A stretch of 64,000 nucleotides of DNA from Planctomycetota bacterium (lineage in GTDB: Bacteria; Planctomycetota; UBA8108; JACQVS01), in the NCBI GenBank assembly GCA_028280485.1, contig JANQLS010000148.1, positions 17,002 to 81,001 on the forward strand. The letters run 5' to 3'. The translations under genes were made by a program, and so were the position numbers. The notes below the pieces were generated by a model. It saw only the letters and a list, made by a program, of their open reading frames with translations. It was not told where the DNA came from and did not search any database. Positions 12,324-57,257 of this stretch are shown here, in pieces; within the stretch, counting starts at the first letter, position 1; each line of letters starts with the position of its first letter.

Positions 12324-13301
12324 TTACCTTACGTAATTCTGCAGCCGGAGTAATTTCGAATGAGGATTGAGGTAAGACTGAATTCTTAAATATTCCACTT
12401 CAAACACATTCACGAAATGGGCCAACAGAGTGAGAGGAGTATTGAGTGGAATCAGACCGCTTGTATAATCATCGATAACCTTTATTAATTCTTTCTTCTG
12501 AGTTGAAGAAAGCAATTTCTTTAAAAATCCCATGAAGTGTAGCAACACATTTCGGTGTTTCTTGGGAGAAGTCAATTGAGACATACCTTCCATATAGATC
12601 TGAATATAACGCTCCTTAATTTCTTCTCGATTTTTCCCCTTGGCTTGAGCAACCCAGCGGCCGAGTTCTCTGTACATCTTTTCATCATGAGCCAAAAGCA
12701 GAAATTTTTCTTGGGCATGAAAAGAACTCAAGCTCCCGATGGACCAATTTGAGTTAAAAAAATCTTGAAGCCGAGAATAGGCAAATACTCGTTCAAAGAA
12801 ATTTTCTCTTAGCAAAGGATCATTCAGTCGACCTTCGTCTTCCATCGGTAACCAAGGAAAGGCGTCCTCTAGGGCTTGAGCAAAAAATCCCTTCCCATTC
12901 TTGGCTGGAATTCCTTTCGAGCTATAAACTCTCACTTTGAACAGACCACAACTAGGAGAGTCTTTTTTCAAAATAAATCCGTCTAAGTTCAGTTTCTGAA
13001 TCTCTTCGACTTTAGATTCTGTGAAAGAAATCATCCTCTCTGTATGATCGATCTCATTTTTATTATCAACGAGTCGAAGTCCCTCAGGCTTCTTCTGAAT
13101 TTGGAGGGACGGACGCGGTATCCCCAAACCCATCTCAAATTCAGGGCAAACCTTGTGGTAATCCACTAAGCCAGCTAAATCATTGACTAAAAAATGACTT
13201 CTCTTATGACCCCCATCGAATCGCACTCGATCCCCTAAGAGGCAGCTTGAAATTCCGATTTGTAACTTGCGTTTCATGGATAAACCTGTTTTAGATTCCA
13301 A
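12324..13301 (-). CDS. ybgA: YbgA-like protein (DUF523 + DUF1722)
   Basis: 325 aa; N-terminal IGISSCLLGDRVRFDGGHK (DUF523-like) plus C-terminal DUF1722-like region; divergent from the photolyase gene, recalling the E. coli ybgA-phr association. Confidence 0.55.
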   Translation of the reverse strand: MESKTGLSMKRKLQIGISSCLLGDRVRFDGGHKRSHFLVNDLAGLVDYHKVCPEFEMGLGIPRPSLQIQKKPEGLRLVDNKNEIDHTERMISFTESKVEEIQKLNLDGFILKKDSPSCGLFKVRVYSSKGIPAKNGKGFFAQALEDAFPWLPMEDEGRLNDPLLRENFFERVFAYSRLQDFFNSNWSIGSLSSFHAQEKFLLLAHDEKMYRELGRWVAQAKGKNREEIKERYIQIYMEGMSQLTSPKKHRNVLLHFMGFLKKLLSSTQKKELIKVIDDYTSGLIPLNTPLTLLAHFVNVFEVEYLRIQSYLNPHSKLLRLQNYVR

Positions 13302-17717: not shown

Positions 17718-20700
17718 TTAAATTGTCTCTCTCAAAAATGCCAACAAATCGGCCATATCCCCCAATGACATCGATTCATCCAATTCCTCAGGCATAAACG
17801 ATCTACCCTCGGTCTCCATGTTTTGAATGTCTGCTTTTAATAAGGTAATGGATTTCCCGCTAGTGTCCTTCAAATGAATACTGGTTGCGGTCTCTTCTTT
17901 TATTAATCCCTTGTACAAAATTCCACCTTTGGTAAGCACTGTATAGTCATGAAAACGAGGATCGACCGATCGATTAGGGTCCAAGATCGATTGGAGCAAG
18001 GCCTGGGGAGATTTATCCGTTAATGCTCGTAGATCAGGGCCGATGGTCGTCCCGATGTTCCCGATCTGATGGCAAGTTGAACAATTCTTTTTAAAGACAT
18101 GCGCGCCTTCCTCCCCGCTACCATTGAGAGTCACTGAAGGCCAGTAAGCAAGAACCTTGTTTCCACCGTACGACTTTGGCTGTTTTGAAAATAAAGCTTT
18201 AGCCTTCTGAGCTATTTTTTTATCTTTCCAACGTTCAAGGATTTGACGCTGGGCGAGACTGAGGTCATGAATGGACAATTGTTGATTCTCAAGCGCGGAA
18301 AGAAAGCTCTGCGTCCAATTTCCGTTTTGGGAAATGATCCTAAATAATGCGGCTTGCTGATCGGGCAAACTCTTAGCGTAGAGGCTTATGACGTCTTCAG
18401 CTTGCCCCTTCAATTGACTTAATTTCGAAGCCACTGCCAATTGGAACTCTAATTCTGAACTTTCTAGTAACCATTTCGAAAGCAGCACAACATCTCGCCC
18501 CTTGCTATGAGGAAGGGCACCCATAAGCTTCACCAAGGCAATTCGAGTGTTTAAGGAAACCTTTCCTTCCTCAATGATCTCAGGCACTCTCAGAAGGAAC
18601 TTATCCAACGCTTGCTTTATAGCTTTGAACTTGGGATCGTCCTTAGTTAAGCGATCCAACGAACTTTGGGAATGATTCAGCTTAAAAAAAATAGATTCTA
18701 AAGCTTGGAGACGCCAGAGGTCTTTCGAAGGATCCAGCTCTCCCTCGACCAGAGCTGCAATTAACTCTCGAACAACCCCCCTATTGTTTGACTTAATAGC
18801 CGTCATGAATAGCGGAGAAAACCAAGCTTCAAATACCGGCCCTTTTTCCTGAACAACGGTCCTTGAAACTCCTTTTAGATGGGGAAGGAGTGAACTCGCT
18901 ATCGCAGAACGAAGCCATGGATTTTGATAATGAAGAACGGCTAACCGCCCTAAGGCTTCAGAACATTTTGAAGATTTAAATTCTCCGAGAGTACAAGCGA
19001 GTTGTAAGATCAACTTCAAATCTGAATGGGAGACGAGCCTTACAAGCTCGTCTTGAAGACCAGCATGCTCAGGAAATTTTTCGCTCATCCTCAAAACTTC
19101 AACCACAAATTGGGCTTCTTCATAGTTGAGAGCCGCAACCAGTTCCTCAGGCTTAAGAAGGCCCCAGCCATCTCTTAAAGACAAAAGATGAAGATCCATT
19201 AGAGCATTGTGCTCATCGACGATCTCCATACTGTCGGGCTTTTTAAGGAGAAGTGTTCGGTGAGCTAAATCTCGAAGGATGCCATTACGACTCCCCAAGA
19301 GCGACACGAGATTGCTCGGAGAACCTTTTGAAAAATCCGGTATTCGGGGAGATGGACCTTCTTTAGGAAGAACTCGATAAATTCTTCCTCGCTCTTCACC
19401 CGATCGATAAAACGGCTTGAGTTCTTCTTTACCATGAGGAGGTAACCAATCAGGATGCTCGATCATATAACGATACATATCGACGATATAGAGGGCTCCG
19501 TCGGGGCCTGTTCGCGTCATCACCGGGCGGCACCAACGATCTTCACTTGCAAAAAAATCGTGCCCGTTTTTTCCGGGAACTCGCTTCGCTTTAAAACTGA
19601 CCCCGGATGAAGTGAGAACAGTATGCTGAACAATGCCGTGAAAAGGATCACAAGTGAAAGCATGAGTACGGCCATCCTTTTCGAATAAAAGGCGGTCTCG
19701 ATAAATGCTCGGGCCACAAGCTGAAGTAAATTGGGTCGCATCGGCAAAACTGTGATAACGCTTCTGAGGAAACTTAGCGGGATAGAGCTTGGAGCTGACC
19801 TTGCGAATGAGATCTTTGGCCGAAGGAGTGGGAAGATAGGGATTCCGTTTCGCGTACCGATCCTTCAAGACGTAATACCAAAGAGGACGTGAATTTTGAA
19901 CTCCGAACCACCGGTTCCAATCATCGCGCACTCGACCGAATTGAGAGGGACCGGACTCCGGTTGCATCTCCCAAGTGACGGGATTGAAGCGAATGTCACG
20001 ACTCCCGATATGAACCTTTTTACCAGTAAGAACAGCTTCGATTTGGCGTTTTGCTCCGTACCCGGCGTGATGCCCTCCACTAGCGCAATAGATCCAATTA
20101 TCTAAACCCCATCGAAGGCCGTTGACTCGAAGTTGTTGGTTCCCAGGTAAAAAACCATCGTAGAGAATGACCTCACGATCGGCCTTTCCATCATCGTTAT
20201 GATCGGGAAGGTAAATGATATGAGGCGCAGTCGTCACTAAAACACCTCGATCCCAAACCATCAAACCGTTAGGAAAACTGAGCCCTTCAGCGTAGAGCAC
20301 CGAACGATCGTAACGACCATCGCGATCATCATCCGTTAGAATCCGAATGCGCCCTCCTGGTTCGTCGCCTCCCTTCATACCATCAGGATAGTCCGCCATT
20401 TCGGCGACCCACAATCGACCTTTGAGATCCCAATCGATCGCTACGGGATCTTTTACAAGGGGTTCTTGCGCTACCAACTCTAAACGAAATTGAGGATCGA
20501 TGTGAGTGATTCGAAGAGTCTCTTCAGGACTCTTCGGTAGGGAATCCAGCTTGAGAGTTTTCTCTGAGTTCGAATTATTGGCTGACTTGTTTCCCATTCC
20601 CGAAGCTTTGAAGTGTTCGGCAGCCTCCACCGGGCTTAAAGCTCGATCGAACAGGGAAATTTCATCGAGTAAGCCTTCCAAGCCGGGTTGGTTCTTATGG

Positions 20701-22667
20701 TCTCCTCCTAACATCAACTTCGCCGTTGGGTCGGGTTTTAATTTTACAGATCCTTCTAAATCCAATTTTCCATTGAGGAAAACTCGAACAAAGTTCTTAT
20801 CGCGAGTGAATACTAAATGATTCCAGCCCTGACCGAAGGTTTGCTTCCCTTGAAGCGATCCGATGGATAGTTTCCCTAAATTTTCACTTCCACCATCGAC
20901 GATGGTTAAGAGATCCGAACCCCAGCGAAAAATTTCTCCTCGAACTTTTCGGTTATCTTTGATGACCTTATTAGAAAACCATAGCTCAACGGAATATTGA
21001 TCTTTGATTTGCTGAGCTTGAAACTCGAGCCAACCATCGATGAGATGCAAGCAACGATTGACATGTTCATTTGAGAATGCCGGAGATTGAGGACCACGTA
21101 AGTAAAAGGCGATTCTTGGCTTTACTTTTAGTTCGTTTTTATTCCCACTCGAATCACTAACGGATTCACCACGGAATTCTTCCAATCGCCAATAAGCTAT
21201 AGGTTTCTTTGACAGGATCAAAGAGGGGTAAGCTCCCTTCGAACGAACGGGAGCCCTCTCATTCTTACCGCTGACTTTTTCCAACAACTTGACAACGCTT
21301 CTCACGATGATGGGCTCCGCCTCGATCGCTAAACCCGCCGTACGGGCGGGCCAAGTATTGTACCCACCTAAGGCGTGTTGCTCGGGTGGCGGAATGTAAC
21401 CGGCAGCCCCATTTGCCAATGAAAGGTTAAAAGTCGGTTGCAGGGGACTCCGCATTTTGAGTTCAAGACCCGTTAAAGCGTAGACTTCACAAGGTATGGC
21501 GGTGATTCCCATCGAACCAATTCGAGCGGCCTGCAACACGACTTCTTCTTTTGGATTGTCTCTCAAAAAGAAAGCTTGCTCAGCGTAAACTTGAGGCCGA
21601 TTTTTGGGACGCACGTTAGGATCAGGCCAAGTCTTCTTGGCCCACTCCAATCTCTTTTCGTCGGGAAGACGACGATTAAAAGTGATTCGCTGCTCTTCGA
21701 TCCCGATAGGAACATTTTTAAAAAAGCGAATTTGCTTGTAAGCTTTCAATGATGATTCAACGAGCTCTCGAGTGTATTTGTCGATCGGAGGATTAACTCT
21801 CGGTTTCGAATAATCCCCTCTCCATAAATCTCCACTCGTCCCCTGAGAAAGAATCCCCACAAATCCCTGAGTTTCTTTCCCGAGCTCTTTTTCAATTTGA
21901 TTCGCATAACGCCCGAAGTAATCCGCTGAGAAGCCACCACCGAAGCCGAAGTAGTGCATCGAAAAGTTACCCATAAAAAATATGGGCTTTCCTTCATAGT
22001 CTCTAGCAGCCAGGATCGAAAATCCCGCATCCTCAGGTCCCGAAGGACCGACGTAATGAGGATTTTGATAGCCCGGATGCATCATCGCTTGCACGGTGCG
22101 TTCGCCGAAAGGATCCAAGTCAGGGCGTCCCACTCTACGAATCCAACGTCGATTAGCCGTGTGGTCGGGAGCTTGAAATACAGTATGCCCGACCTCAGCT
22201 GGGCGAACTCGTTTCGATGCTTCGATGATGCTTTTTGCAATCCAACCGGGTAAGACTTTGGCGTACTCAGGATCGATTCGAGTTCCTAAGCAATAATTCA
22301 TCGCGCTCGGAGCAGTATGGGTGTGAGTTGCCGAAATTAAAACGCGGTTAGGTTCTAAGCCGATCTCAGAATGAACTCTTCGCTTCACCTCATCGCAAAG
22401 AGTCCGCGGAAGCATGCAAGAATCAACAATCGCGATCGCTAATTGTTGCTTATCATTCTTAAAGTACGCCACTCGGGAATAAAGTGGGTCAGCAACTCGG
22501 TTCGTGACTCTTTCTAAAAATCCACCATTCTGGCGCGCGGGCAAGACCTTTGGGCTAATATCTTGCGAGTAGGCTCCGACTTGAATGACTCGATTGTCCT
22601 CCTGACTTAGAAGGACTGACGAGGAGCACAGAAACAGACAGATGATGATGGTCTTTTTAATGAACAT
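17718..22667 (-). CDS. Giant secreted multidomain protein: neutral-ceramidase-like N-domain + LamG/ConA-like + membrane-bound-dehydrogenase-type beta-propeller + HEAT repeats + C-terminal cytochrome c
   Basis: 1649 aa; signal peptide; SATHTHTAPSAMN (ceramidase-like); LamG-like block; PVAIDWDLKGRLWVAEMADYPDG propeller; long helical repeat region; CSTCHQIGNIG heme motif near the C-terminus. Confidence 0.6.
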   Translation of the reverse strand: MFIKKTIIICLFLCSSSVLLSQEDNRVIQVGAYSQDISPKVLPARQNGGFLERVTNRVADPLYSRVAYFKNDKQQLAIAIVDSCMLPRTLCDEVKRRVHSEIGLEPNRVLISATHTHTAPSAMNYCLGTRIDPEYAKVLPGWIAKSIIEASKRVRPAEVGHTVFQAPDHTANRRWIRRVGRPDLDPFGERTVQAMMHPGYQNPHYVGPSGPEDAGFSILAARDYEGKPIFFMGNFSMHYFGFGGGFSADYFGRYANQIEKELGKETQGFVGILSQGTSGDLWRGDYSKPRVNPPIDKYTRELVESSLKAYKQIRFFKNVPIGIEEQRITFNRRLPDEKRLEWAKKTWPDPNVRPKNRPQVYAEQAFFLRDNPKEEVVLQAARIGSMGITAIPCEVYALTGLELKMRSPLQPTFNLSLANGAAGYIPPPEQHALGGYNTWPARTAGLAIEAEPIIVRSVVKLLEKVSGKNERAPVRSKGAYPSLILSKKPIAYWRLEEFRGESVSDSSGNKNELKVKPRIAFYLRGPQSPAFSNEHVNRCLHLIDGWLEFQAQQIKDQYSVELWFSNKVIKDNRKVRGEIFRWGSDLLTIVDGGSENLGKLSIGSLQGKQTFGQGWNHLVFTRDKNFVRVFLNGKLDLEGSVKLKPDPTAKLMLGGDHKNQPGLEGLLDEISLFDRALSPVEAAEHFKASGMGNKSANNSNSEKTLKLDSLPKSPEETLRITHIDPQFRLELVAQEPLVKDPVAIDWDLKGRLWVAEMADYPDGMKGGDEPGGRIRILTDDDRDGRYDRSVLYAEGLSFPNGLMVWDRGVLVTTAPHIIYLPDHNDDGKADREVILYDGFLPGNQQLRVNGLRWGLDNWIYCASGGHHAGYGAKRQIEAVLTGKKVHIGSRDIRFNPVTWEMQPESGPSQFGRVRDDWNRWFGVQNSRPLWYYVLKDRYAKRNPYLPTPSAKDLIRKVSSKLYPAKFPQKRYHSFADATQFTSACGPSIYRDRLLFEKDGRTHAFTCDPFHGIVQHTVLTSSGVSFKAKRVPGKNGHDFFASEDRWCRPVMTRTGPDGALYIVDMYRYMIEHPDWLPPHGKEELKPFYRSGEERGRIYRVLPKEGPSPRIPDFSKGSPSNLVSLLGSRNGILRDLAHRTLLLKKPDSMEIVDEHNALMDLHLLSLRDGWGLLKPEELVAALNYEEAQFVVEVLRMSEKFPEHAGLQDELVRLVSHSDLKLILQLACTLGEFKSSKCSEALGRLAVLHYQNPWLRSAIASSLLPHLKGVSRTVVQEKGPVFEAWFSPLFMTAIKSNNRGVVRELIAALVEGELDPSKDLWRLQALESIFFKLNHSQSSLDRLTKDDPKFKAIKQALDKFLLRVPEIIEEGKVSLNTRIALVKLMGALPHSKGRDVVLLSKWLLESSELEFQLAVASKLSQLKGQAEDVISLYAKSLPDQQAALFRIISQNGNWTQSFLSALENQQLSIHDLSLAQRQILERWKDKKIAQKAKALFSKQPKSYGGNKVLAYWPSVTLNGSGEEGAHVFKKNCSTCHQIGNIGTTIGPDLRALTDKSPQALLQSILDPNRSVDPRFHDYTVLTKGGILYKGLIKEETATSIHLKDTSGKSITLLKADIQNMETEGRSFMPEELDESMSLGDMADLLAFLRETI

Positions 22668-22775: not shown

Positions 22776-24218
22776 ATGACTCGACACCAAAGTTCAATCA
22801 TTAGAAATGTGATTCTACTCCTCACCGCACTAATTTCAGTTCAAGCCACGGCGTCCCCTGAAGGTAAACGCAATTTTGTCTTTCTTTTAGTCGATGATTT
22901 AGGGTGGGCGGATACGGGTTGCTACGGCAGTACGTTCTACGAAACACCGCACATCGATCGACTCGCCGCATCGGGTACTCGATTCACCCAAGCTTACGCT
23001 GCGGGCTCGGTTTGTTCTCCCACCCGGGCGAGCATCCTCACGGGCCGCCATCCCGTTCGAGTAGATATCACCGATTGGATCCCCGGCATGGCCACAAATA
23101 GAGCAAAAACGGCAAAGTTCAAACACATCAACGATCGAGATAATCTAGCCCTGTCAGAGGTGACCATCGCCGAAGAGCTCAAAGCGAATGGCTACCAAAC
23201 ATTCTTCGCGGGCAAATGGCACTTAGGCGACAAAGGGCATTGGCCTAAGGATCAAGGTTTCGATTTCAATATTGGAGGGAACAAAAAAGGATCACCTCCC
23301 GGTGGGTACTACGCCCCCTGGACGAATCCCACTTTAAAATCAAAACACAAAGGGGAATACCTCACCGAAAGATTGACGGAAGAATCGATCAAATTTCTGA
23401 AGACTCGTAATTCGAAAAAACCCTTCTTACTTTATCTTTCGTATTACAACGTTCACACTCCGATCACTCCCTACAAAAAGCGAATCGCACATTTCAAAGA
23501 GAAAGCAAGTAAGGTTCAATCCAAGGGCACCAGCATCGACGAACACGATGGCACTTCCAAGCTCACTCAAGACAATCCCGCCTACGCTTCGATGATTCAA
23601 GCGGTCGATGACAGCGTAGGAGAATTGATGGCAGCTCTCCAATCTCAGGGCCTAGATAAAAGCACTGCCGTCTTCTTTTTTTCTGACAACGGTGGTTTAT
23701 GCACATTGAGAAAAAACCGAAGAGCCCCTACCAGCAATTTACCCCTTCGCTCAGGAAAGGGGTGGCTCTACGAAGGCGGCATTCGTGAACCCTTGATCAT
23801 CAGTGCTCCAGGAGTTGGCAAGCCAGGATCGATTTGTAAGACTCCCGTTTTCAGTACGGATTTCTTTCCCACCATCTTAGAATTAGCCGGCCTTCCCCTT
23901 AATCCTGACCTGCATGCGGATGGGAAAAGTCTATATAAACATTTATCCAATAACGAAGATAAGAGCCCACGAAGCCTCTTCTGGCACTACCCTCACTACC
24001 ATGGTTCCTCTTGGAAACCGGGTGCCGCTATTCGTGTCGGAGACTGGAAATTGATTGAGTTTTATCACTGGGAAAAAATTGAGCTCTATAATTTGGCGAC
24101 AGACCCAGGAGAAAAGAAGGATCTGTCGAAGACCCACCCCGATAAAGCTAAAGAACTTCAAAACAAACTCAAGAGCTGGCAAAAGAAAATGAAGGCGAAG
24201 ATGCCTCAGCGAATTTAA
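22776..24218 (+). CDS. Formylglycine-dependent sulfatase (secreted)
   Basis: 480 aa; [37 protein letters not shown]. Confidence 0.9.
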
Positions 24219-26672: not shown

Positions 26673-26830
26673 AGTAGTCGGCTCAATGTAGTCCGCACGC
26701 TCTGCGTGCGGATTGTAGTCGGCTCACCCCGTGAGCCGGAAGAGCACAGCGTTACAAATCCTGGCTTAATTATGACTGATTTGCGAAGTGACTCATACCG
26801 TCCCGGCTCACGGGGTGAGCCGACTACTTT
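26673..26830. mobile_element. MITE-like element, family A (158 bp)
   Basis: agtagtcggctcaatgtagtccgcacgctctgcgtgcgga...cccggctcacggggtgagccgactacttt; inverted termini. The TAG stop of the minus-strand 995-aa gene (26824-26826) lies inside the right terminus. Confidence 0.6.
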
Positions 26831-29811
26831 AATTCTAAATCCGCCATATAAATCGCGGTAATTCGTTTCCCCTGCGCATCTTTCTCGTGCGAAGAGTACC
26901 AAGATACAACGGCTTTCCCTTCTCCGAGGTCGATGAATCCAGGATACGAATTATCTCCTGCACTCGGCAATTCGACAAAGGGATGAAGCTCACCCCGAAC
27001 AAACCACTGTAAGACGGTCTTCGGCCCTCGGGGAGTATTCTTTCGACCACCTACTACCCAACGATTTCCCCACTGGGTGATCAATGGTCCTCCAATATAT
27101 TCCTTAAGATCACGGCGTTCCCACTCTCGGTAGGGAGGCTTGGCAGTTAAAAATTCAGCCGCACTACGAGCCCTTCTCCCGATCCCCACGATGGTACCAT
27201 CGGGCAAGAATTGAAAGGCCGTTTCATCGCCATGAGTATCTTGGAAAAAACCTCTCTTTTTCCAAATCAAACCATCCTCACTTTCAAGGATGACAGATTT
27301 CACGTCAACTCCCTCCCCTTTCGGCCCCACTCTAAAACTAAATTTTCTCCGCCCACATAAGTATGCCGTACCGTTGAAAGTATTAGCCTTCCAAATGTAG
27401 TGTCCGAAAGTACCTTCTAACAAGGTGGGTGGACTCCAATTTTTGGCATCGGGAGTCCAGACGCAATAACCTAAATGTTCATTCAAATCAAAACGGGTTC
27501 TCTTCGTTCCCGGTTTCCCGTAATACCAAGTTCCTGTGTAAACGAAAAGCTTCCCCTTAAAGGAAAGAAAGTGAGGATCGCGAGTGTCTCGCTCGGGTAC
27601 TGAAAACTGGTGAACTGGACTCCAAGATTTTAAATCAGCACTTTTCAAAATAATGATACTGGCTGTGGGTTGAACTCCGTGACCATCCGGGCAACTCCTA
27701 AATGCCAAATAATAATTATTTTGATAAAGGATCAGATCCGTAAAGGCGTTGTGTTCTCCGTTGTGAAAGACTCGACGAATATTGGCGACCTTAACCTTCG
27801 GTAGATCTTTAGCTGAAAGCTTTTCGTGTCGGACGACTCGAAAACCGATCTTTGAAAGCTCTAAGGTGGGATTGCTGAAGAAACGCCCTGCAGATTGACG
27901 ATTGTTCCCTAAAAACCAAGCCCCGGAACGCAAGCCTCTAAAAATCTTTCCTACACGCGCTTCATTCCATACCCAAACATTGTTATTTACGTTTTCGAGA
28001 CCGTAGGCCGTCACCCAATTCTTAGGGTGACTCATCAAGTTGTATCCCCCGAGGAGTCGTGGGACGAACAATTGATATTTATATTTTTTATTGGAAGGAT
28101 CACCGAGGAAATAAACAGCCTTGTACCATTCGTTTTCACTTGGAAGCGAATAACGAGCGTGAACGTTTCGAGAACTCACTTGAGTCCCTTGTATTTTATA
28201 AGCTCCATCTTCAGTCGTAGCGCTGGATTGCTCGCCCTGAGGCTTTCCATTATGTAACCAGTTCGCATAACGTGCTGCATCGTGAAAGGCAACAAACGTA
28301 ACCGGAAGTTGGGCTTTGGTGTTTTTTACATAGTATTGATATTCTCCCGAGTCCCCCATTCTGAGAATGCCCCCCTGATTTGTACCCATTCTGAGATTGT
28401 ATAAACCGTTCGGGTCGCTCTTACCGACAGCGTTGAGAAAAAAAGCATATTCAGTGTTAGTGATCTGCCGCTTGGAGATGTTGAAGCAATAAGTAACATC
28501 ACCAAACACACCACGACCTTCATTATTTCGATCGGGAGAATTACCGGCATCCCCGACTCGTACAAACTCAATCGCCTGATCTTGGGGAGAGGAATGAGCT
28601 TCTAATGCTGTTTTGATGGGGATCGATCGAGAATCCGAAACGAGTTCTCGGGGTAGATCGTAAGGGGTCTTCCAAAACCGTTCTGGATTTGGAGGCGGTT
28701 TTCCAAACCAATGCCATTGAGCAAAATCTAATTGGGCCTTCCAATCTTCATCGTTAGAAGCATGCTTACCTCCGCGATAATAAAGACCATTCTTTTTGGG
28801 CACGCCATAAAGTTCAAAGACTCTGTGAGCCGCCACCGAAGTGGCTTGAGTTCCTTCTGGATTGGCGAATTCGTCATCCACAGATTCCGTACACAACAAC
28901 AGTCGAGGAGCGACCAAGGCTTTAAGAAAATGTTGATCGAAAGGTAGGCGGTCTTCCTTTTCATCAAACCACTGAATGCGTTCGTGATACCAGTGAGGCT
29001 TATCGTTCATTCCCAAGGATTCAGCTCCCGGCCCCAGCACCCGGTAAGATCCTGCACCACCAGCCCCGGAACCATTGGGAACGACCAAGGTAAACCTTTC
29101 ATCCAAGGCCCCCGCTAAAAGTGCCATCTTTCCTCCGCGAGAATGCCCAGTGATACCGATACGTTTGAGATCCACATCCTGCCGCGTTTCTAGATAATCG
29201 ATCACTCGCATGCCGCCCCACGCCCAAACCGCCAGAGTTTCCCAATCATAGTCCGAATACTTTTGCTGGGCTGGGCCTTTCACTCCCTTTCGATCTGGAT
29301 CTAAATCGTGCCGAGCGTATTCGATGAACATGAAACCCGCATCGAGAAACATCGGCACTTGACGAGTTCCTCCGAGGTGACCTTCCTCTCGAATGATCAC
29401 GGGAAGCTTTCCCTCATTTTTGGGTCGATAGATCACGATACGCATTTCGAGAGGGCGCTGAGATCCGATCTTCAGCAGAATCCAATCCTCCGTTCCCTTG
29501 CCACTTTTATGAGGGACCGATTTAATCAAAGTTCCTGTGACTTGATCTGGACGAGGAGGAATCCGACCGTACTGGTAGTAAAGGATGATCTCTTTTAGGG
29601 TATTACGCCGTTTTTCCCAAGCCTCTTGAGTGCGGATGGATTCACCCGCCTCACCCATTAAGACATCGGGTAGGTTTGGAATCGAAGGTAAATCCTCATT
29701 CGATGCTGGGGGTTGCCATACCTTCTCCTCACTCGCCGTTGAAAGTGTGGTGATAGAACTACAGAGAAAGATGAACAAGAGGCTTAGTATATAAGACTTC
29801 AACGAGGACAT
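26824..29811 (-). CDS. Secreted three-module protein: CE15-like (glucuronoyl-esterase-like) alpha/beta hydrolase + FGE/SUMF1-like domain + BNR/sialidase-like beta-propeller
   Basis: 995 aa; signal peptide; GITGHSRGGKMALLAGALD (GxSRxG esterase motif); central ...RYSLPSENEWYKA...GAWFL... FGE-sulfatase-type domain; C-terminal propeller with repeated W/D-rich blades. Confidence 0.55.
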   Translation of the reverse strand: MSSLKSYILSLLFIFLCSSITTLSTASEEKVWQPPASNEDLPSIPNLPDVLMGEAGESIRTQEAWEKRRNTLKEIILYYQYGRIPPRPDQVTGTLIKSVPHKSGKGTEDWILLKIGSQRPLEMRIVIYRPKNEGKLPVIIREEGHLGGTRQVPMFLDAGFMFIEYARHDLDPDRKGVKGPAQQKYSDYDWETLAVWAWGGMRVIDYLETRQDVDLKRIGITGHSRGGKMALLAGALDERFTLVVPNGSGAGGAGSYRVLGPGAESLGMNDKPHWYHERIQWFDEKEDRLPFDQHFLKALVAPRLLLCTESVDDEFANPEGTQATSVAAHRVFELYGVPKKNGLYYRGGKHASNDEDWKAQLDFAQWHWFGKPPPNPERFWKTPYDLPRELVSDSRSIPIKTALEAHSSPQDQAIEFVRVGDAGNSPDRNNEGRGVFGDVTYCFNISKRQITNTEYAFFLNAVGKSDPNGLYNLRMGTNQGGILRMGDSGEYQYYVKNTKAQLPVTFVAFHDAARYANWLHNGKPQGEQSSATTEDGAYKIQGTQVSSRNVHARYSLPSENEWYKAVYFLGDPSNKKYKYQLFVPRLLGGYNLMSHPKNWVTAYGLENVNNNVWVWNEARVGKIFRGLRSGAWFLGNNRQSAGRFFSNPTLELSKIGFRVVRHEKLSAKDLPKVKVANIRRVFHNGEHNAFTDLILYQNNYYLAFRSCPDGHGVQPTASIIILKSADLKSWSPVHQFSVPERDTRDPHFLSFKGKLFVYTGTWYYGKPGTKRTRFDLNEHLGYCVWTPDAKNWSPPTLLEGTFGHYIWKANTFNGTAYLCGRRKFSFRVGPKGEGVDVKSVILESEDGLIWKKRGFFQDTHGDETAFQFLPDGTIVGIGRRARSAAEFLTAKPPYREWERRDLKEYIGGPLITQWGNRWVVGGRKNTPRGPKTVLQWFVRGELHPFVELPSAGDNSYPGFIDLGEGKAVVSWYSSHEKDAQGKRITAIYMADLELK

Positions 29812-31033: not shown

Positions 31034-31036
31034 TTC

Positions 31037-31354: not shown

Positions 31355-31451
31355 TTAGTTGAAACACTCCTCAGACTTAGTACGTCCTAATTTGCAGGTA
31401 ATTAAATTTTAACTGCTATATCTCAACGTACTCTACTAAGACTGACGGAGG

Positions 31452-31883: not shown

Positions 31884-32142
31884 ACTCCAAGAAATCTAAT
31901 AATTGAATAGCAGTTGGGACGATGGCTCTCTGTTGGATTCAGCTCGCATTTTCAGTGCTAAATAAGTCAACCTACCGGCCTCTTTTTTTATCTGTCTTAC
32001 TTTTCATTTTTGTCATCGTTCTCTTTGCACAAGCACTCATTACAAATTACGATAACCATTTCCATCTCTGGAAAGTTCTACCCGAACACCCAACCGAAGT
32101 CCGTAGAGTCTTCGAAACTGTTAGAGATCCCAATCCTTTCAA

Positions 32143-32889
32143 GTGAATCTTCAAGGAGATTACGAACCCCCAATGAAAAACGAAATCACAATCGGCATCA
32201 TCGGAGATTTCAACCCCGACAACCCATTCCACCAAGCGACCAACGCGGTCATCGAAACCGCGGCGCGACTGAAATCTATCCCACTTAATTTTGAATGGAT
32301 TCCAACGGAGAGCCTAGAATCCTTTGACAAAGAATCGCTACTAAAATCTTTTCAGGGTTTCTGGTGCGCACCCTCAAGCCCTTACGTCAGTTTTGAGGGT
32401 GCCCTCAACGCAGTTCGTCTGGCCCGCGAATCTGGATGGCCCTTTATAGGGACGTGAGGCGGATTTCAGACGGCTCTGGTAGAGTACGCAAGAAATGTTT
32501 TAAATATCGAAAACGCCGAGCACGAAGAATCATCTCCCGATGCCGAGCGCTTAGTGGTTTCGAAATTAACTTGTTCGTTAAAAGATGTAGAGGGGAAGGT
32601 CTTCCTGAGCCCCGGCACTCAAGCCCGAGAAATTTACGGTAAAGAGGAATCCAAGGAATCGTTTCGGTGTAACTTCGGTTTGAACCCTAAGTACTTTCCT
32701 GCATTTGAAGAAACTTCATTTCGATTTTCAGGAAAAGATGAAGATGGCGCCCCTCGACTGATGGAACTCACCGATCATCCTTTTTATATGGGCACTCTCT
32801 TTCTGCCCCAGATTCGATCGGATGCTTCATATGTGCATCCGATTATCGATGCATATGTGGATGCTGTGGTAGAGAGCGCTAAGCGTTAA
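32143..32889 (+). CDS. CTP-synthase C-terminal-domain-like (class-I glutamine-amidotransferase-like) protein interrupted by one in-frame TGA (32455-32457) at the predicted nucleophile Cys position; candidate selenoprotein or point-mutation pseudogene
   Basis: ORFs 32143..32457 and 32554..32889 are in the same frame and separated only by the TGA. The joined product reads ...GWPFIGT-U/*-GGFQTALVEYARNVLNIENAEHEE..., paralleling the CTP synthase GATase GICLGMQVALIEYARNV motif, with ...DHPFYMGTLFLPQ at the HPE position. Confidence 0.5.
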
Positions 32890-33757
32890 AAGATTCAAAG
32901 AGTGTCCCCTTAACGGGAACTCGCGCTCGAAACAATCCGCCCGCATGAGGCTGCTCTTGGAGTTGCTCAGAAGTCATTCGGTCTCGAGCGGTCGTGATAT
33001 ATAGATCGTGAAGATCCTCACCACCGAAAGCACAAGCGGTGACATGAGCTGAGGGCACAGGAATTTGACTTAAGATCGATCCTGATAATGGATCGTATCG
33101 AATAACCTGAGATCCACCCCACATTCCGACCCACAGCTTATCTTCAACATCGATCGCCATTCCGTCTGGAAAACCCAAACCGTCTTCCACTTTGACTGCA
33201 GTTCGACGATTTGAGATTTCACCCGACTCTAAATCGTAATCAAAGGCATCGATTCTCTTCGTGGGGGAATCGATGTAATACATAGTTTTTGAATCAGAAC
33301 TCCACACAATACCGTTTGAAACTGAAATATCTTGAACGTGTTTTTTAACCTTACCGTCACCGTCCAATGAATACAAAATTCCATGGCCAGGGTCTTCTAC
33401 CTTCGACATGGTACCCGCCCAAAATCGTCCTTTGGGATCGCACTTACCATCATTAAAGCGATTAGTAGAAATATGGCTCTCAGGATCAGCAAGCCGTTTT
33501 AGGGTCTGGGTTCCAGGGTCAAACGAAGCGAAACCATTTTCTAATGCTAAAGCCACTCCCCCTGATCGTTGAAGCACAACTGTACCGACGGCTTCTCCAA
33601 TTTGAAAAACGTCATCGTTTTCGGATTGGGGGTCGAACCGGTGTAATTCCCCAGCAAAGATGTTGACCCACCACAGAACCTTTGCATCGGGATCCCAAAG
33701 GGGTCCTTCCCCCAATATGGCTTTAGAGTCTAAAACAAGTTCAACTTCAGTCGGCAT
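32879..33757 (-). CDS. SMP-30/gluconolactonase/LRE-family lactonase
   Basis: 292 aa; ILGEGPLWDPDAKVLWWVNIFAGELHRFDP; six-bladed propeller hallmarks. Confidence 0.85.
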   Translation of the reverse strand: MPTEVELVLDSKAILGEGPLWDPDAKVLWWVNIFAGELHRFDPQSENDDVFQIGEAVGTVVLQRSGGVALALENGFASFDPGTQTLKRLADPESHISTNRFNDGKCDPKGRFWAGTMSKVEDPGHGILYSLDGDGKVKKHVQDISVSNGIVWSSDSKTMYYIDSPTKRIDAFDYDLESGEISNRRTAVKVEDGLGFPDGMAIDVEDKLWVGMWGGSQVIRYDPLSGSILSQIPVPSAHVTACAFGGEDLHDLYITTARDRMTSEQLQEQPHAGGLFRARVPVKGTLFESFNA

Positions 33758-33758
33758 C

Positions 33759-34562: not shown

Positions 34563-34845
34563 TTCGAATCTCTCTTTAATCTATTTGAAGCTCATAAGTC
34601 GATCGTTGGAACCGACAGAGCTCACCGCAAATCAGAAGTGAAATTAAGGGTTAACGTCTGGTTTAAAAGAAGGATCAAGTTGAAGATCGTACCAAAAATC
34701 AATGGAGAATGATAACAAACATTGAGATCTATTGTTCACCCCGGTATCCTCATGAGTTCCAAAATTCACGAAGAAAAACACTCATATAAATCAGCTTGAT
34801 TTCTATTTATAGAATCTCGGTTAATGCATTTCGTTATTAAAGGGG

Positions 34846-35502
34846 TTGGCGATGTTGATAATATCCAAATGGCGTTTAGTGTTAATCGGAGCTGCAATCG
34901 CACTTGCCGGAATTGGGGTAGTATCAAAAGGATCTAAAGAGAGCCGGCTCTCAGAAGTCGCAATGGCAGATCCCCAGGTAATCACCTGTAAAAAATTAGC
35001 GGAGGATGGCCCCAAAGATAACGCCCACATCATCCTTACGGATTTCATCTGTAGCCCTTATTACGTCTATGAGGGTAAAAAGTCTTCAGACAGCTCCAAT
35101 TCTGCTTGGACTAAGGTTTGGATCCCGTTGATCCCTGCCGATGATCCCTGGTCGAAAGGCTATAAAGCAGCCTTGCTTCTAGGTGGGGCGGCCTTAGATA
35201 ATTATCCCCCACCAGATTCCTTCAGCGTACTTTTACGATCTTCAAATATCAAATCCGAAAAAAGCCTGGGTCAATTCGTAGATAAAAAAGAGATCCAAGG
35301 AATCATTGTCAACGAGATTGAAATGATTTACGGAGAAGAGAAAAAACTCTTAACCGAAAATTACAATTTTGACCCCAGCAAAGCGTGGATCTTGGATGAA
35401 GGTCGAACTCTTTCAAACTCCATCATCTTTTTTGCGAGCGGAGTTCTTCTGATCATTGTGGGGATCGGAGCGGTGGCCTACGCATTTGTGAGAAAAGTTT
35501 GA
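34846..35502 (+). CDS. Hypothetical bitopic membrane protein, tandem paralog 1
   Basis: 218 aa; N- and C-terminal TM helices; shares ITCKKLAEDGPKDNAHIIL...WIPLIPADDPW...YPPP...IVNEIE...LL...Y.FDP.K.W...EGR.L with the next gene. Confidence 0.5.
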   Translation: MAMLIISKWRLVLIGAAIALAGIGVVSKGSKESRLSEVAMADPQVITCKKLAEDGPKDNAHIILTDFICSPYYVYEGKKSSDSSNSAWTKVWIPLIPADDPWSKGYKAALLLGGAALDNYPPPDSFSVLLRSSNIKSEKSLGQFVDKKEIQGIIVNEIEMIYGEEKKLLTENYNFDPSKAWILDEGRTLSNSIIFFASGVLLIIVGIGAVAYAFVRKV

Positions 35503-35571: not shown

Positions 35572-36234
35572 ATGAGTAAAATTCAAGCTATTATCAGTGG
35601 CGGTGTTGCAATCGCCATCGGTGTTATCCTTCTTAGCGAAGCTCTAAAGGATTCGACAATTGCTTCAATCGCCAAAGAAAAACCACAACGAATCACCTGT
35701 AAACAACTGATCGCTGAGGGCCCAAAAGACAATGCCCACCTGATCCTAAAAGATTTTGTGTACTGCGATAATATGTTTGTGACTCTTACGGAAGTAGACG
35801 ATAACGGAAGGGAAACCGATGATTTCTACTGGAAAGCCATTTGGGTCCCACTGGTTCCCGCCGACGATCCCTGGGTCCAAGGTTTTCTCGCTGCTCGTGA
35901 AGCGGGAGGTGACGCCTATGACAAATACCCACCTCCCAGTCAAATCAAAATTATCTTGAAGTCAAAAACAGTTCCTAAAGACGATTACTTTGCCAACCTG
36001 GATAAGAAAACCATCATCAAAGGGATCGTCATCAATGAAATTGAACAAATTTCGGGAGAAGAATTAAAACTTCTTCAAGATACTTATAAGTTCGACCCAC
36101 AAAAAGTATGGCTTATCGAAGAGGGCCGAGCCCTAAAATCCACGTCTTCTCTCATGGGGAAATACGCCATCGCCGGAGTGTTGATGCTTGGAGGATTAAT
36201 CTTCATCTCATTTAAATTTCTTAAAGGTAAGTAG
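35572..36234 (+). CDS. Hypothetical bitopic membrane protein, tandem paralog 2
   Basis: 220 aa; same architecture and conserved blocks as 34846..35502. Confidence 0.5.
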   Translation: MSKIQAIISGGVAIAIGVILLSEALKDSTIASIAKEKPQRITCKQLIAEGPKDNAHLILKDFVYCDNMFVTLTEVDDNGRETDDFYWKAIWVPLVPADDPWVQGFLAAREAGGDAYDKYPPPSQIKIILKSKTVPKDDYFANLDKKTIIKGIVINEIEQISGEELKLLQDTYKFDPQKVWLIEEGRALKSTSSLMGKYAIAGVLMLGGLIFISFKFLKGK

Positions 36235-46851: not shown

Positions 46852-46927
46852 GTAGCAAAAGACGCCAGTCTTTTGGGGAATGCGCTTCAAATACGTTCCT
46901 CGCCAAAAGACTGGCGTCTTTTGCTAC
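46852..46927. repeat. Perfect 25-bp inverted repeat hairpin (repeat family C) between convergent genes; probable bidirectional terminator
   Basis: GTAGCAAAAGACGCCAGTCTTTTGG (46852-46876) ... CCAAAAGACTGGCGTCTTTTGCTAC (46903-46927). The sulfatase stop (46924-46926, reading TAG on the minus strand) lies within the GTAGC end of the right arm. Confidence 0.7.
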
Positions 46928-48225
46928 AATTCGATCCCCAATCCTTTAAACGCCTCCAATAACAACAGCTTTGCTCCCATCGCTTGCTTAGAAAGTTTTC
47001 CCTTCAAAGCATTTTTCTCATCGGGATCGACGTTCATATCAAAGAACTTGCCGCTTTTATAAAACTTGAAGCGCTGAGTACGAACCCAACTTTTATTTTT
47101 ATGTTCAGCGTAAGCAAATCGCTTGGGCCCGGGAACTCCTTTTAACAATCTTGAAGCGAAGCTCACCCCGTCGATCTTTCCCATCCCTTGAGGATCTGCA
47201 CCAGCTAAGACACAGAAGGTCGAGTAAAGATCACTGACATCCACGAGATCTTCCACCACCTGCTTGGGCTTAATTTTCGCCGGCCAACTCACGAGCCAAG
47301 GAACTCGAGTTCCCCCATCGGTAAGCTTACCCTTGCCTCCCGGGATCTTCTTATCCCCTTTCATCGAGAAGACGGGGTCACGAATATACTTCCCATTTTT
47401 CGCCCGAATGATGGATCGCTGGGCCGTGCCGTTATCACCAACGAAGAGGACGAGGGTATTGTCTCGCAGTCCCGATTCTTTCAACGCCTTCTGTAATTTC
47501 CCCACCATGCGATCCATGTCGTGAGCCATCTCTTTGTAGTTGAGATAGCGATCCAAACCGGGAGGATACTCAACCGGTTTTTTAAGGTCATCCGTGACGT
47601 CGTGACAGAGCGCCATCGAATAAAAGGCAAAGAAAGGTTTTTTACGATCCGCCTTCATGAAATCGATGAGGAAATCGGTATAGACATCGGGTCCGTAAGC
47701 CTTCTCTAAGCCTTTTCGAATTTTCCCGTTTTGCCAAATTAAGGGATTGTGAAACCGAGGACCTTCGTGCCATCCAAAAAGACAAGATTCATCAAATCCC
47801 AATCGGTGGGGATGCTTGGGATCTTCTTTTAATAAAGTAAGTTGCCACTTCCCCGCCACCGCCGTTCGGTAACCCGCTTTCTTTAATTGCTGAGCGATCG
47901 TTCGTGACTCTTCCTTTTTGGGATAACTCCCCCACTTAGCTTTTTCCATTCGAAACGGATACCGCCCGCTCAAGATCGAAACTCGTGTCGGATGACAAAC
48001 GGCCATACTGTATCCATGGTTGAAACGAATTCCGCTTTCCGCCAGAGCATCGAGCTGGGGTGTGGGGTAAGAAGTTCCTCCGTAGCACCCTAAGACTTCT
48101 TGGCCAACATCATCGGCAAGAATCAAAAGGATATTGGGACGCGGGGCTTCACTTTTGGGCTCTAAACTTAAAACAGCGTGTTCGACAACAAGGAAACTTA
48201 GGATGATGAACAATAAGTTTTTCAT
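46924..48225 (-). CDS. Formylglycine-dependent sulfatase (secreted)
   Basis: 433 aa; signal peptide; ILADDVGQEVLGCYG; CHPTRVSILSGRYP; GKWQL. Confidence 0.9.
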   Translation of the reverse strand: MKNLLFIILSFLVVEHAVLSLEPKSEAPRPNILLILADDVGQEVLGCYGGTSYPTPQLDALAESGIRFNHGYSMAVCHPTRVSILSGRYPFRMEKAKWGSYPKKEESRTIAQQLKKAGYRTAVAGKWQLTLLKEDPKHPHRLGFDESCLFGWHEGPRFHNPLIWQNGKIRKGLEKAYGPDVYTDFLIDFMKADRKKPFFAFYSMALCHDVTDDLKKPVEYPPGLDRYLNYKEMAHDMDRMVGKLQKALKESGLRDNTLVLFVGDNGTAQRSIIRAKNGKYIRDPVFSMKGDKKIPGGKGKLTDGGTRVPWLVSWPAKIKPKQVVEDLVDVSDLYSTFCVLAGADPQGMGKIDGVSFASRLLKGVPGPKRFAYAEHKNKSWVRTQRFKFYKSGKFFDMNVDPDEKNALKGKLSKQAMGAKLLLLEAFKGLGIEL

Positions 48226-52070: not shown

Positions 52071-53465
52071 ATGAAATTGAATCCTTACTCCCTCATTCTT
52101 CTTTTAAGCTTCGCCTCTCTTCAAACATTCGTAGCATCCAATACTGCGAATTCAGACGAACGCCCCCCCAACTTCGTCATCATCTTTTTAGATGACTCCG
52201 GTTGGGGAGACTTCCATCCCTTCGGAAATCCCAAATACAAAACACCTCATGTTCAACGTTTGGCTAAAGAGGGAACGCAGTTTAATAACTTCTACGTCCC
52301 ACAAGCCGTTTGTTCGGCTTCGAGAGCTGCCCTCCTTACGGGTTGTTATCCGGGTCGTACAAAAGTCTTTGGCGCTCACCCCCCGAAAGCAAAAGGCTTA
52401 GATCCAAAATTCGCCACACTAGCTGAAGTCTTGAAGAAAAAAGGTTACGCGACCTGCTTCACGGGGAAATGGCACGTTGGAGATCAAGAAGCGACTCGCC
52501 CTCAAGCCCGCGGATTCGACGAATCGAGTGGCTTGATGTATTCCAACGACATGTGGGAGTTCCATCCCGAAAATCCCAAGTACTGGGGAAAGTTCCCCCT
52601 GAAATACTGGAAGAACGGAAAAGTCACGATCGAGCGAGTTACAAAAAAGCATCAACCTTATCTCACCACTTGGTCGACGGAACATGCGGTCGATTTCATT
52701 AAGCGGAAAAAAGACCAACCCTTTTTCGTTTACGTCCCTCACTCGATGCCCCACGTCCCTCTATTCGTAAGTGAAAAATTTGCGGGTAAATCAGGGCAGG
52801 GACTCTACGGCGATGTGATGATGGAAATCGACTGGTCGGTCGGTGAAATCATGAAAGCCTTAGAAAAGAACGGCGTCGAAAAAAACACTCTCGTCGCCTT
52901 TACTTCCGACAATGGCCCCTGGATCTCTTACGGCAACCACGCTGGCACAACCCCCTTCCGAGAAGCCAAAGGTACGAGCTTTGACGGTGGAATTCGAAGT
53001 GCTTGCATCATCAAATTGCCCGGAAAAATTCCTGCGGGTCACATCTCGACTCGAGCTTTCTCTTCTATCGATTTCCTTCCCACCTTTAGCTCGTTAGCGC
53101 AGGCACAACTTCCGTCTAATCCTGTGGACGGAAAAGATGTATGGTCGATCATCACCGGGCAGAAAAATGCCAAAAATCCACACTCCTACTACCCCTTTAG
53201 CAATGGAAGGAGATTCGAAGGCATCATCAGTGGAGATGGAATTTGGAAACTCCACATCCCCCATCGCTACCGCACGTTGGTCCAACCCGCCCACGATGGT
53301 CAAGCCGGAAAGTACAAGTCGATGAACGTTGAGCTTTCACTCTTTAAGCTCGATGAAGATCCACTTGAAAGTGAAAATGTCCTAAAAAAACACCCCGAGC
53401 AAGCCGAAAAAATGCTGCAAATGGCAGAGAAGCATAAAAAGACGTTTTACCCCAAGCAGAAGTAA
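52071..53465 (+). CDS. Formylglycine-dependent sulfatase (secreted) with CSASR variant motif
   Basis: 464 aa; IIFLDDSGWGDFHPFG; CSASRAALLTGCYP; GKWHVG; TSDNGP. Confidence 0.9.
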   Translation: MKLNPYSLILLLSFASLQTFVASNTANSDERPPNFVIIFLDDSGWGDFHPFGNPKYKTPHVQRLAKEGTQFNNFYVPQAVCSASRAALLTGCYPGRTKVFGAHPPKAKGLDPKFATLAEVLKKKGYATCFTGKWHVGDQEATRPQARGFDESSGLMYSNDMWEFHPENPKYWGKFPLKYWKNGKVTIERVTKKHQPYLTTWSTEHAVDFIKRKKDQPFFVYVPHSMPHVPLFVSEKFAGKSGQGLYGDVMMEIDWSVGEIMKALEKNGVEKNTLVAFTSDNGPWISYGNHAGTTPFREAKGTSFDGGIRSACIIKLPGKIPAGHISTRAFSSIDFLPTFSSLAQAQLPSNPVDGKDVWSIITGQKNAKNPHSYYPFSNGRRFEGIISGDGIWKLHIPHRYRTLVQPAHDGQAGKYKSMNVELSLFKLDEDPLESENVLKKHPEQAEKMLQMAEKHKKTFYPKQK

Positions 53466-55268: not shown

Positions 55269-55643
55269 AGTAGTAGGCTCGCTCCGCGAGTCGTATGAAA
55301 CGAAATAACGAGTCAGTATCGATTCCACCTGAAGAACATTAAGGCGAAACTCGAAGGAGATATCGCCCCTCTTTCTTGAATTCTTAGTAACGCCCTTACA
55401 GGGCTTGCTTCTTAAGATGAATTAGCCCAGGGCGCCGCTTCGCTCTGCCCTGGGCTATGAAGTTACGGGCTTTCAGCCCTTGGTGAATTAAAATACGCCA
55501 CATCCGATTGGTAATAAAACAATGTTGCTATTCCTGAGCGTTAGCTGATAAAGACTTGGCCAACATCGTTCGCATTTTGTTTAATCTTGATGATTCATTT
55601 CTATCAACTCGTTTCATACGACTCGCGGAGCGAGCCTACTACT
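55269..55643. mobile_element. MITE-like element E (375 bp): 34-bp terminal inverted repeats enclosing a family-B repeat unit
   Basis: Left AGTAGTAGGCTCGCTCCGCGAGTCGTATGAAACG (55269-55302) and right CGTTTCATACGACTCGCGGAGCGAGCCTACTACT (55610-55643) are exact reverse complements. The interior carries cgcccttacagggct...cccagggcgccgcttcgctctgccctgggctat, also seen at 37843-37937. Confidence 0.65.
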
Positions 55644-56447: not shown

Positions 56448-57257
56448 ATGCTACCCGAACAACCTTGCCGCCCCCTACTTGCGATCAACTACTCTCCCCA
56501 GGCACTTTCGCTTCTCAACGAAGGGCTGATAAATTTTGATTTATTCAAATTGCCCGATTGGCCTGATTTGGTCAATGAAATCCAATCAAGTTTTGAGGGA
56601 GAGGTTTACGTTCACTTTGATTTTCACCTCGGAGCGCAGGGTTTTGAGAAATCGAAAATTACTGAAGCAAAAAAGCTCTTAGGAATAGGCAAGACCACTC
56701 ACATCAACACTCACTTTGCGCCTTCCAATCCGGAAGAAAGCTTGAACCAAGTGAGCGATGAAATCGAAGAACTTCTCAGCCATTTCGATCGGGATCAAAT
56801 CTTAATCGAAAACGTCCCGTGGATAAATGTTCCCGATTACCCCATCGATCCCCTGGCCTCCAAACCTCAAGCCATCGCCCGAGTCGTTCGAGAGACAGGT
56901 TGCGGATTCCTCATGGATCTCGCCCACGCTAAAATCACATGTCTTGAAGAAAACCTTCAAATCGAACCCTACTTAAGTGCGCTTCCAACCGAACACCTGC
57001 AAGAACTCCATGTCACGGGAGTCAATAGGGATTCAAACGGTAACTTAAGAGACTCGATGCCTATCACCCCTGAAGATTGGGAAACCGTGGAATGGAGCCT
57101 CGACCGGATCGCAAGTGGAGAATGGCGCTGCCCCCGTATCATCACTTTAGAATACGGAGGCATCGGCCCCAAGTTCGAATGGCGAAGTGACCCCGATGTC
57201 ATCGCCCAACAACTACCTCAATTAGAACGCTTACTCCTTGAACGGGGTCTTCGATGA
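56448..57257 (+). CDS. DUF692/UPF0276-family TIM-barrel protein (MbnB/TglH/HvfB-like), first gene of a glycan-type operon
   Basis: 269 aa; blocks LLAINYS...INFDLFKL, VYVHFDFHLG, ILIENVPW, GCGFLMDLAHAKI, ELHVTGV, RIITLEYGG align with MbnB blocks IGFNF...IDYCEI, FHVMF, YLENYP, LFDASNA, HFHVAGY, TITYERDAN (recalled from memory). The stop overlaps the next start (ATGA). Confidence 0.55.
   Translation: MLPEQPCRPLLAINYSPQALSLLNEGLINFDLFKLPDWPDLVNEIQSSFEGEVYVHFDFHLGAQGFEKSKITEAKKLLGIGKTTHINTHFAPSNPEESLNQVSDEIEELLSHFDRDQILIENVPWINVPDYPIDPLASKPQAIARVVRETGCGFLMDLAHAKITCLEENLQIEPYLSALPTEHLQELHVTGVNRDSNGNLRDSMPITPEDWETVEWSLDRIASGEWRCPRIITLEYGGIGPKFEWRSDPDVIAQQLPQLERLLLERGLR

Follow-up and report, generated by a model that had tools for sequence, protein, structure and literature searches.

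A divergent, TGA-containing member of the predicted selenoprotein family NF004836 in a sulfatase-rich PVC-type bacterium

Introduction

[quoted passage not shown] The deep-Sep work of 2025 itself names a "glutamine amidotransferase (COG0504, PyrG)" selenoprotein in Desulfosediminicola ganghwensis (PMC12013277). Neither paper gives experimental verification or a function for the family, whose Sec status is computational. [quoted passage not shown] Complete Sec machinery is known in some Planctomycetes (PMC4807772).

Here we describe a gene at 32173-32889 of a 64-kb stretch of DNA (the window) which is, by sequence comparison, a divergent member of this already catalogued, computationally predicted selenoprotein family. 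We consider it very probable that the gene is an intact, expressed-type selenoprotein gene of NF004836 in which UGA recoding is directed by a hairpin.

Results

One reading frame with a single internal TGA

Read on the forward strand from its ATG to its TAA, the gene occupies one frame whose sole internal stop is the TGA (Table 1). Each of the listed ORFs (32143..32457 and 32554..32889) corresponds to one half of this frame, and reading through the TGA yields ...ESGWPFIGT-TGA-GGFQTALVEYARNV... and, further on, ...GTLFLPQ..., with FLPQ at residues 210-213 of the read-through product. A first-pass annotation of this stretch had claimed that the two ORFs share a frame and are split by this TGA alone, and both the frame and the read-through were reproduced. 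The ATG is the likely start codon, because homologs open with an aligned MxxxIGIIGDF and a Shine-Dalgarno-like AAGGAG precedes it; the GTG at 32143, where the first listed ORF begins, is less likely.

Table 1. Positions of the predicted selenoprotein gene, its candidate RNA signal and other features of the window
Feature	Position	Strand	Remarks
Predicted selenoprotein CDS	32173..32889	+	238 codons including Sec95, then stop TAA at 32887-32889; from translation, NF004836 and dN/dS
In-frame TGA, predicted Sec95	32455..32457	+	Nucleophile position; E. coli CTPS Cys379 by alignment
AAGGAG, Shine-Dalgarno-like	32153..32158	+	14 nt 5' of ATG 32173; read from sequence
Candidate SECIS core	32470..32488	+	Homologous to the 8-bp family hairpin, nt 16-34; from folds, codon freezing and covariation
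Possible extended SECIS	32463..32496	+	AUUUC 32463-32467 pairs with GAAAU 32492-32496; from MFE structures
Uncalled 74-codon ORF	31922..32146	+	Contains a hydrophobic segment; 27 nt separate its end from ATG 32173
SMP-30/gluconolactonase-like gene	32879..33757	-	Convergent; overlaps the last 11 nt of the selenoprotein gene
Sulfatase	1109..2521
Sulfatase	22776..24218
Sulfatase	46924..48225
Sulfatase	52071..53465
PVC-type heme-binding CxxCH protein	17718..22667	-	1649 aa
FGE-sulfatase-domain protein	26824..29811		995 aa
DUF523 (PF04463) plus DUF1722 protein	12324..13301	-	325 aa; 2-thiouracil desulfurase-like; no in-frame TGA
Tandem paralog 1	34846..35502	+	218 aa
Tandem paralog 2	35572..36234	+	220 aa
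Acido-Lenti-1 RNA (RF01687)	55426..55480	+	40.5 bits against a gathering threshold of 37
GspG-like pseudopilin gene	55774..56244
Gene with weak MNIO/DUF692-type RiPP maturase matches	56448..57257	+	E 7e-13 to 5e-6, far below cutoffs
ARAGORN "tRNA-???"	284..384	-	101 nt, four-base anticodon; probably a false positive
CRISPR-DR36 match	281..307	+	Sub-threshold only, 23.7 bits against 38

Cysteine or TGA at the nucleophile codon in relatives

Among the best 120 full-length homologs, the column that holds the TGA contains Cys in 117 and "W" in three, and the DNA of those three "W" homologs has TGA at that codon. A search with the C-terminal fragment retrieved two more split genes, on contigs L007 and L008, both with TGA at the same codon and a frame that is otherwise open; TGA stands at this codon throughout L007-L011. 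When metagenome contigs were scanned with the pattern P-F-x-G-T-TGA-G-G-F-Q, at least 120 metagenomic loci with TGA at exactly this codon were found, and in nearly all of the listed TGA loci the frame is open for about 95 codons ahead of the TGA and for 140-160 beyond it. The alignment of orthologs that had been proposed as a check on Cys or Sec at this position thus gave Cys in 117 of 120 and TGA in the rest as well as in at least 120 further loci, which puts the placement of the TGA far beyond chance. In a rough neighbor-joining tree the Sec and Cys forms are intermixed, with at least six switches between them. A scan of genome contigs with the protein retrieved only four distant matches (26-31% identity) and no close relative.

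One locus, L127, ceases to resemble the family just past the 5' arm of the hairpin described below (…GGFQYAL, then PPRQAKTG…) and meets a stop after 21 codons. Whether a truly decayed copy or a chimeric contig, it shows what a real pseudogene of the family would look like.

Purifying selection on both sides of the TGA

The protein encoded in L007 is 93% identical to that of the window, and the two genes differ at 80 of 690 nt, with a dS of about 0.62. Over the whole gene there are 66 synonymous and 14 nonsynonymous differences (dN/dS 0.043), of which 26 and 7, respectively, lie upstream of the TGA (dN/dS 0.054) and 40 and 7 downstream (dN/dS 0.036). Six differences fall within the 96 nt that separate the TGA from the GTG at 32554, each of them a synonymous third-position change. 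The low dN/dS and these six synonymous differences indicate that strong purifying selection has acted in this frame on the segment after the TGA ever since the split of the two lineages. This excludes a fresh pseudogene and disfavours separate translation of two pieces.

The first-pass annotation had held a selenoprotein and a fresh pseudogene to be equally plausible. The selenoprotein half of that statement is borne out by membership in NF004836 and by the Cys and TGA orthologs, while the pseudogene half fails on a TGA that is shared at a dS of about 0.6, a dN/dS of 0.036 downstream of it and six of six synonymous differences.

A CTP-synthase-type glutaminase fold with an altered active site

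With Cys substituted for the TGA, the protein scores 304.6 bits on the NF004836 profile (cutoff 260), a full-length match in which residues 5-232 cover profile positions 1-227 of 228; the (seleno)protein family named in the first pass exists, and the protein scores above its cutoff. PyrG (CTP synthase) models give only 116-119 bits against cutoffs of 308-463, and Pfam GATase (PF00117) is marginal at 24.1 against 22.8. The protein falls outside CTP synthase proper: it is 238 aa long, aligns only to PyrG residues about 288-542, and is without the N-terminal ATP/UTP-binding synthetase domain that is fused to the glutaminase domain. The AF2 model of P0001, the closest full-length Cys homolog (50% identical to the window protein), has a pLDDT of 94.4 and matches CTPS glutaminase domains with a TM of 0.85-0.88. 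From the alignment to solved CTP synthases and the match of this model, we infer that the gene encodes a stand-alone CTPS-type class I glutaminase-like domain.

When the protein is aligned residue by residue with E. coli CTP synthase (PDB 1s1m), the TGA falls on the nucleophile Cys379, as had been proposed when the TGA was first placed on the catalytic Cys codon. In the alignment to solved CTP synthases, Q99 and E119 of the window correspond to Gln383 and Glu403 of the E. coli enzyme, C166 to His469, N167 to Arg470, L211 to His515 and Q213 to Glu517. The Cys-His-Glu triad of class I GATases (PF00117) is therefore represented by its nucleophile, as predicted Sec, and not by its other two members. 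The same is true family-wide: the His515 column holds V, L, Q or I and nowhere His, in Cys or Sec forms, and the Glu517 column holds Q, with E instead in roughly one in five Cys forms. With no His in that column, the family as a whole lies outside the Cys-His-Glu definition of triad amidotransferases. FLPQ in the place of the HPE-like region had been taken as a hint of decay; since the whole family, Cys forms included, carries this substitution, it is a family feature.

The family-invariant residues W42, T45, G76, R85, P90, G93, T94, G96, G97, F98, Q99, E104, E119, C166, N171 and P212 are all present. Across 203 family members, all invariant residues are kept and the window protein departs only at K34, V81, L83, T100 and V221. 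Position 100, Thr in the window, is His in 119 of 120 Cys forms and His or Tyr in Sec forms. A second cysteine, C166 of the motif C-N-F/Y-G, occurs in every one of the 203 sequences, and C134 is nearly invariant.

A conserved hairpin downstream of the TGA in TGA forms

In the TGA forms of the family, an 8-bp hairpin begins 12 nt past the TGA. With the T of TGA as nt 1, its two arms are nt 16-23 and nt 27-34, on either side of a 3-nt loop that reads GGU (71), GUU (29) or GAU (3), and the canonical form is CAUACUCU-GGU-AGAGUAUG. Its geometry, with a loop that leads with G, a stem of at least 4 bp and a spacing of 20 nt, fits the bacterial SECIS model. Among 113 distinct TGA forms, synonymous choice is frozen at codons +4 to +10 only (CAA CAT ACT/GCT CTG GTA/TTA GAG TAT), with an entropy of 0-0.66 bits, as opposed to 0.86-2.2 bits at the degenerate codons of the nearly free flanks, codons -10 to +3 and +11 to +24. 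In an alignment of 109 sequences (A3), 97.8% of the stem cells are paired, compared with 14-61% in controls with slid partners. The same alignment shows covariation, pair 18:32 changing from U-A to C-G in nine sequences and pair 19:31 from A-U to G-C in three, at a level reached in 0 of 500 shuffles. No such hairpin was found in the two Cys-form genes checked at the DNA level, which is a small control.

A subclade of nine loci (L013, L014, L026, L043, L052, L090, L105, L107 and L117) has TAC (Tyr100) and TGT (Cys105) where the other TGA forms have CAT and TAT at codons 100 and 105. These codons turn pair 18:32 from U-A to C-G, a compensatory change in the RNA that costs the protein a Tyr105 to Cys replacement. 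At residues 102-103, Leu-Val/Leu is found in Sec forms and Val/Ile-Ile is favoured in Cys forms. The forced change at Tyr105 and this residue usage indicate that the RNA signal shapes the protein sequence.

The hairpin of the window

The hairpin of the window has a 5-bp upper stem (32473-32477 with 32481-32485) and a GGU apical loop at 32478-32480; at the base, A32486 is bulged, and G32472-C32487 and C32471-G32488 pair in an alternative register. The segment, ACGGCUCU-GGU-AGAGUACG, is identical in the window and L007. The loop and the upper five pairs are thus kept from the family, and the lower three family pairs are mismatched because the His100 codon CAU became the Thr codon ACG; C32487 arises from a synonymous TAT to TAC change. 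A further lower stem (the possible extended SECIS of Table 1) is specific to the window and without family conservation, and L007 breaks one of its pairs (TTC for TTT).

The loop, the 5-bp upper stem and the 20-nt spacing agree with the bSECIS criteria. The core hairpin has an MFE of -4.4 kcal/mol, compared with a family median of -8.5 kcal/mol; core plus lower stem reaches -6.5 to -7.4 kcal/mol, borderline with respect to the -7.5 criterion, and -9.5 kcal/mol is obtained only when the UGA itself pairs. The folding energy is no better than that of shuffled sequence (z about 0). The rebuilt lower stem thus makes this hairpin weaker than that of the family. The identity of the segment in the window and L007 despite a dS of about 0.6 concerns about five synonymous sites and is weak, with an estimated P of about 0.07.

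It is homology to the strongly conserved family hairpin that argues for the window hairpin working as a SECIS. The first-pass annotation had seen no convincing bacterial SECIS hairpin. One of this type is present at 32471-32488, with a GGU loop and homologous to that of more than 100 TGA-form orthologs, albeit weaker; since comparative data and not energy single it out, it is understandable that it was missed. In the lineage of the window and L007, the RNA signal and the protein site may constrain each other, as the His100 codon forms part of the 5' arm and its swap for Thr accompanies the re-registered lower stem.

Genomic context and gene content of the host

The gene, apparently monocistronic, has a 143-aa membrane-protein ORF about 290 nt upstream; an uncalled ORF with a hydrophobic segment lies closer (Table 1) and could be a small membrane protein gene that shares its transcript. 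Downstream, the convergent SMP-30/gluconolactonase-like gene is followed by a FAA-hydrolase gene. No conserved neighbour was found among 45 TGA-form loci or three Cys-form loci, so the gene context offers no functional clue. No selA, selB, selD or tRNA-Sec was found in the 64-kb window (39 ORFs of at least 150 aa, ARAGORN, Rfam).

Sulfatases and BamB-like beta-propellers are abundant in the window, which contains at least four sulfatases, a FGE-sulfatase-domain protein and a large heme-binding CxxCH protein, a sulfatase/CxxCH gene content that is typical of the polysaccharide-degrading type of the PVC superphylum. The named relatives of the window photolyase are Planctomycetota (50-53% identity), and this together with the PVC-type gene content points to a PVC-type bacterium as host.

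Several other features of the window were recorded. The ARAGORN "tRNA-???" is not a tRNA-Sec and has no Rfam tRNA match; the stretch around it has a single sub-threshold CRISPR-DR36 match (Table 1), and no direct repeats were found in 1-1200. A window scan for other TGA-interrupted genes gave a sole further candidate, 34825-36234, which consists instead of two tandem paralogs, 39% identical and without a family match, that share a frame and are separated by a TGA plus 69 nt and so mimic an interrupted gene. DUF523, which is found together with DUF1722 in one window protein, is among the families with predicted Sec members elsewhere (PMC12013277). The Acido-Lenti-1 RNA lies just upstream of the GspG-like pseudopilin gene, and the gene with weak RiPP maturase matches is followed by glycosyltransferase, methyltransferase and aminotransferase genes.

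Discussion

Proposed decoding and alternative explanations

We propose that the UGA at 32455-32457 would bypass termination during translation. The mRNA hairpin that starts about 14 nt downstream, with its GGU apical loop 20 nt past the UGA, would be the bacterial SECIS and would recruit SelB-GTP-Sec-tRNA(Sec), upon which selenocysteine would be inserted and a 238-residue protein made.

One rival is that the TGA is a fresh nonsense mutation (TGC/TGT to TGA) in an ordinary Cys gene. One substitution would suffice for this, and the weakness of the window hairpin, the Thr in place of the near-invariant His100 and the lack of Sec machinery genes within the 64-kb window could all be counted in its favour. 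However, the TGA is common to L007, 80 of 690 nt apart, with the frame intact and an omega of 0.036 downstream; the same TGA recurs in at least 120 orthologs; and every family-invariant residue is kept, so that we regard a pseudogene as extremely improbable. A sequencing or assembly error at 32457 has nothing specific in its favour. The region 26805-37538 of the window, TGA included, is 100% identical in the Logan assembly of SRR20820735, the reads of which are possibly not independent, and the base call is further supported by the same TGA in L007, a diverged relative from another assembly (ENA ERZ27279858). We take the chance of such an error to be negligible.

It might also be that the UGA simply ends a 94-residue N-terminal piece and that the C-terminal piece is translated separately from the GTG at 32554. 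Gene callers do give 94-aa and 111-aa products, and the GTG is indeed there; nevertheless, the 96-nt gap between them encodes invariant family residues (GGFQ, Glu104, Glu119) and differs from L007 at six synonymous third positions only, which speaks for coding selection in frame, and the Cys forms are single polypeptides. We therefore consider two separate pieces very unlikely. Hardly any weight, in our judgement, falls on a UGA that is read as some amino acid other than Sec, whether through a reassigned code (Trp or Gly, codes 4 and 25) or near-cognate suppression. JGI pipelines did give Trp at this codon in three orthologs, but the aligned residue is Cys and never Trp or Gly from their own codons, standard-code ORFs tile 86% of the window, and the conserved RNA hairpin follows the TGA in TGA forms only (with a Cys control of two genes). 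TGA ends six of the 39 long ORFs, i.e., it is an ordinary stop in this genome, and a reassigned code is thus not the explanation. Against these alternatives, a selenoprotein gene with hairpin-directed recoding remains our preferred reading.

Possible chemistry

The predicted Sec95 occupies the nucleophile elbow of a class I glutaminase fold of the CTP-synthase type. The protein would stand alone, without the triad His and Glu (Leu211, Gln213) and without an equivalent of Arg470, and would keep the equivalents of Gln383 and Glu403 as well as the invariant Cys166 on a strand that lines the pocket. We take this strand to be the counterpart of the R-H-R-Y-E strand of CTPS, whose residue 470 contacts glutamine and which lines the active-site pocket; by this analogy, a Sec95/Cys166 redox pair is conceivable. 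With the triad His and Glu absent and Sec/Cys95 and Cys166 kept, a (seleno)thiol-centred enzyme with a chemistry other than canonical glutamine hydrolysis is to be expected, most likely nucleophilic or redox chemistry on a small substrate that resembles an amino acid. More tentatively, and with some doubt on our part, the family might not be a glutaminase at all and might instead use the glutaminase scaffold of CTP synthase for redox chemistry or for forming a selenenylsulfide. If so, its chemistry would be undescribed for class I GATase folds. That the triad His and Glu are missing family-wide makes the chemistry of the family a question for biochemistry.

For annotation, the consequence would be that the 94-aa and 111-aa "hypothetical" fragments should give way to a single selenoprotein of 238 aa. 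The presence of this gene also makes it probable that the PVC-type host uses selenocysteine. TGA forms are common in the family (at least 120 metagenomic loci) and share one short, nearly invariant putative SECIS, which would dictate codon choice in the active-site helix and also part of its amino acid sequence (Leu-Val/Leu-Glu, residues 102-104). Existing knowledge of selenoproteins in general is unchanged by these results.

Comparison with known systems

With bacterial SECIS elements (E. coli fdhF type; bSECISearch model as given in PMC13188914), the candidate shares its location within the reading frame directly downstream of the UGA, a 3-nt loop starting G-G-U, a UGA-to-loop spacing of 20 nt and an upper stem of at least 4 bp. 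Unlike the fdhF element, it is much shorter, and its free energy in the window lies at or just short of -7.5 kcal/mol.

With the PyrG glutaminase domain (E. coli 1S1M, S. solfataricus 3NVA), the window protein has in common the fold (TM 0.85-0.88, for the model of the 50%-identical homolog), the nucleophile in a G-x-C-x-G-x-Q elbow, the counterparts of Gln383 (Q99) and Glu403 (E119), and a C-terminal HP(L/I) motif. In contrast to PyrG, it has no N-terminal synthetase domain and a predicted Sec in place of Cys; His515 is replaced by Leu211, Glu517 by Gln213 and Arg470 by Asn167, and an extra invariant cysteine, C166, is aligned to His469. The scaffold is thus the same, with the PyrG-like elbow kept, and the replaced His and Glu place the protein outside the triad definition.

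Its closest described relatives remain the members of NF004836, with which it shares the full-length HMM match, the G-T-U-G-G-F-Q motif, the invariant residues, a TGA at the Sec/Cys position and a SECIS candidate in the corresponding position, whose GGU loop and upper stem are those of the family. It differs from them in being at most about 50% identical to any member except L007, in having Thr100 where the family has His or Tyr, and in its hairpin, where the lower three pairs are gone and partly replaced in a shifted register with a bulged A. Its host, too, is different, being a sulfatase-rich PVC-type bacterium and not a deltaproteobacterium or a soil lineage.
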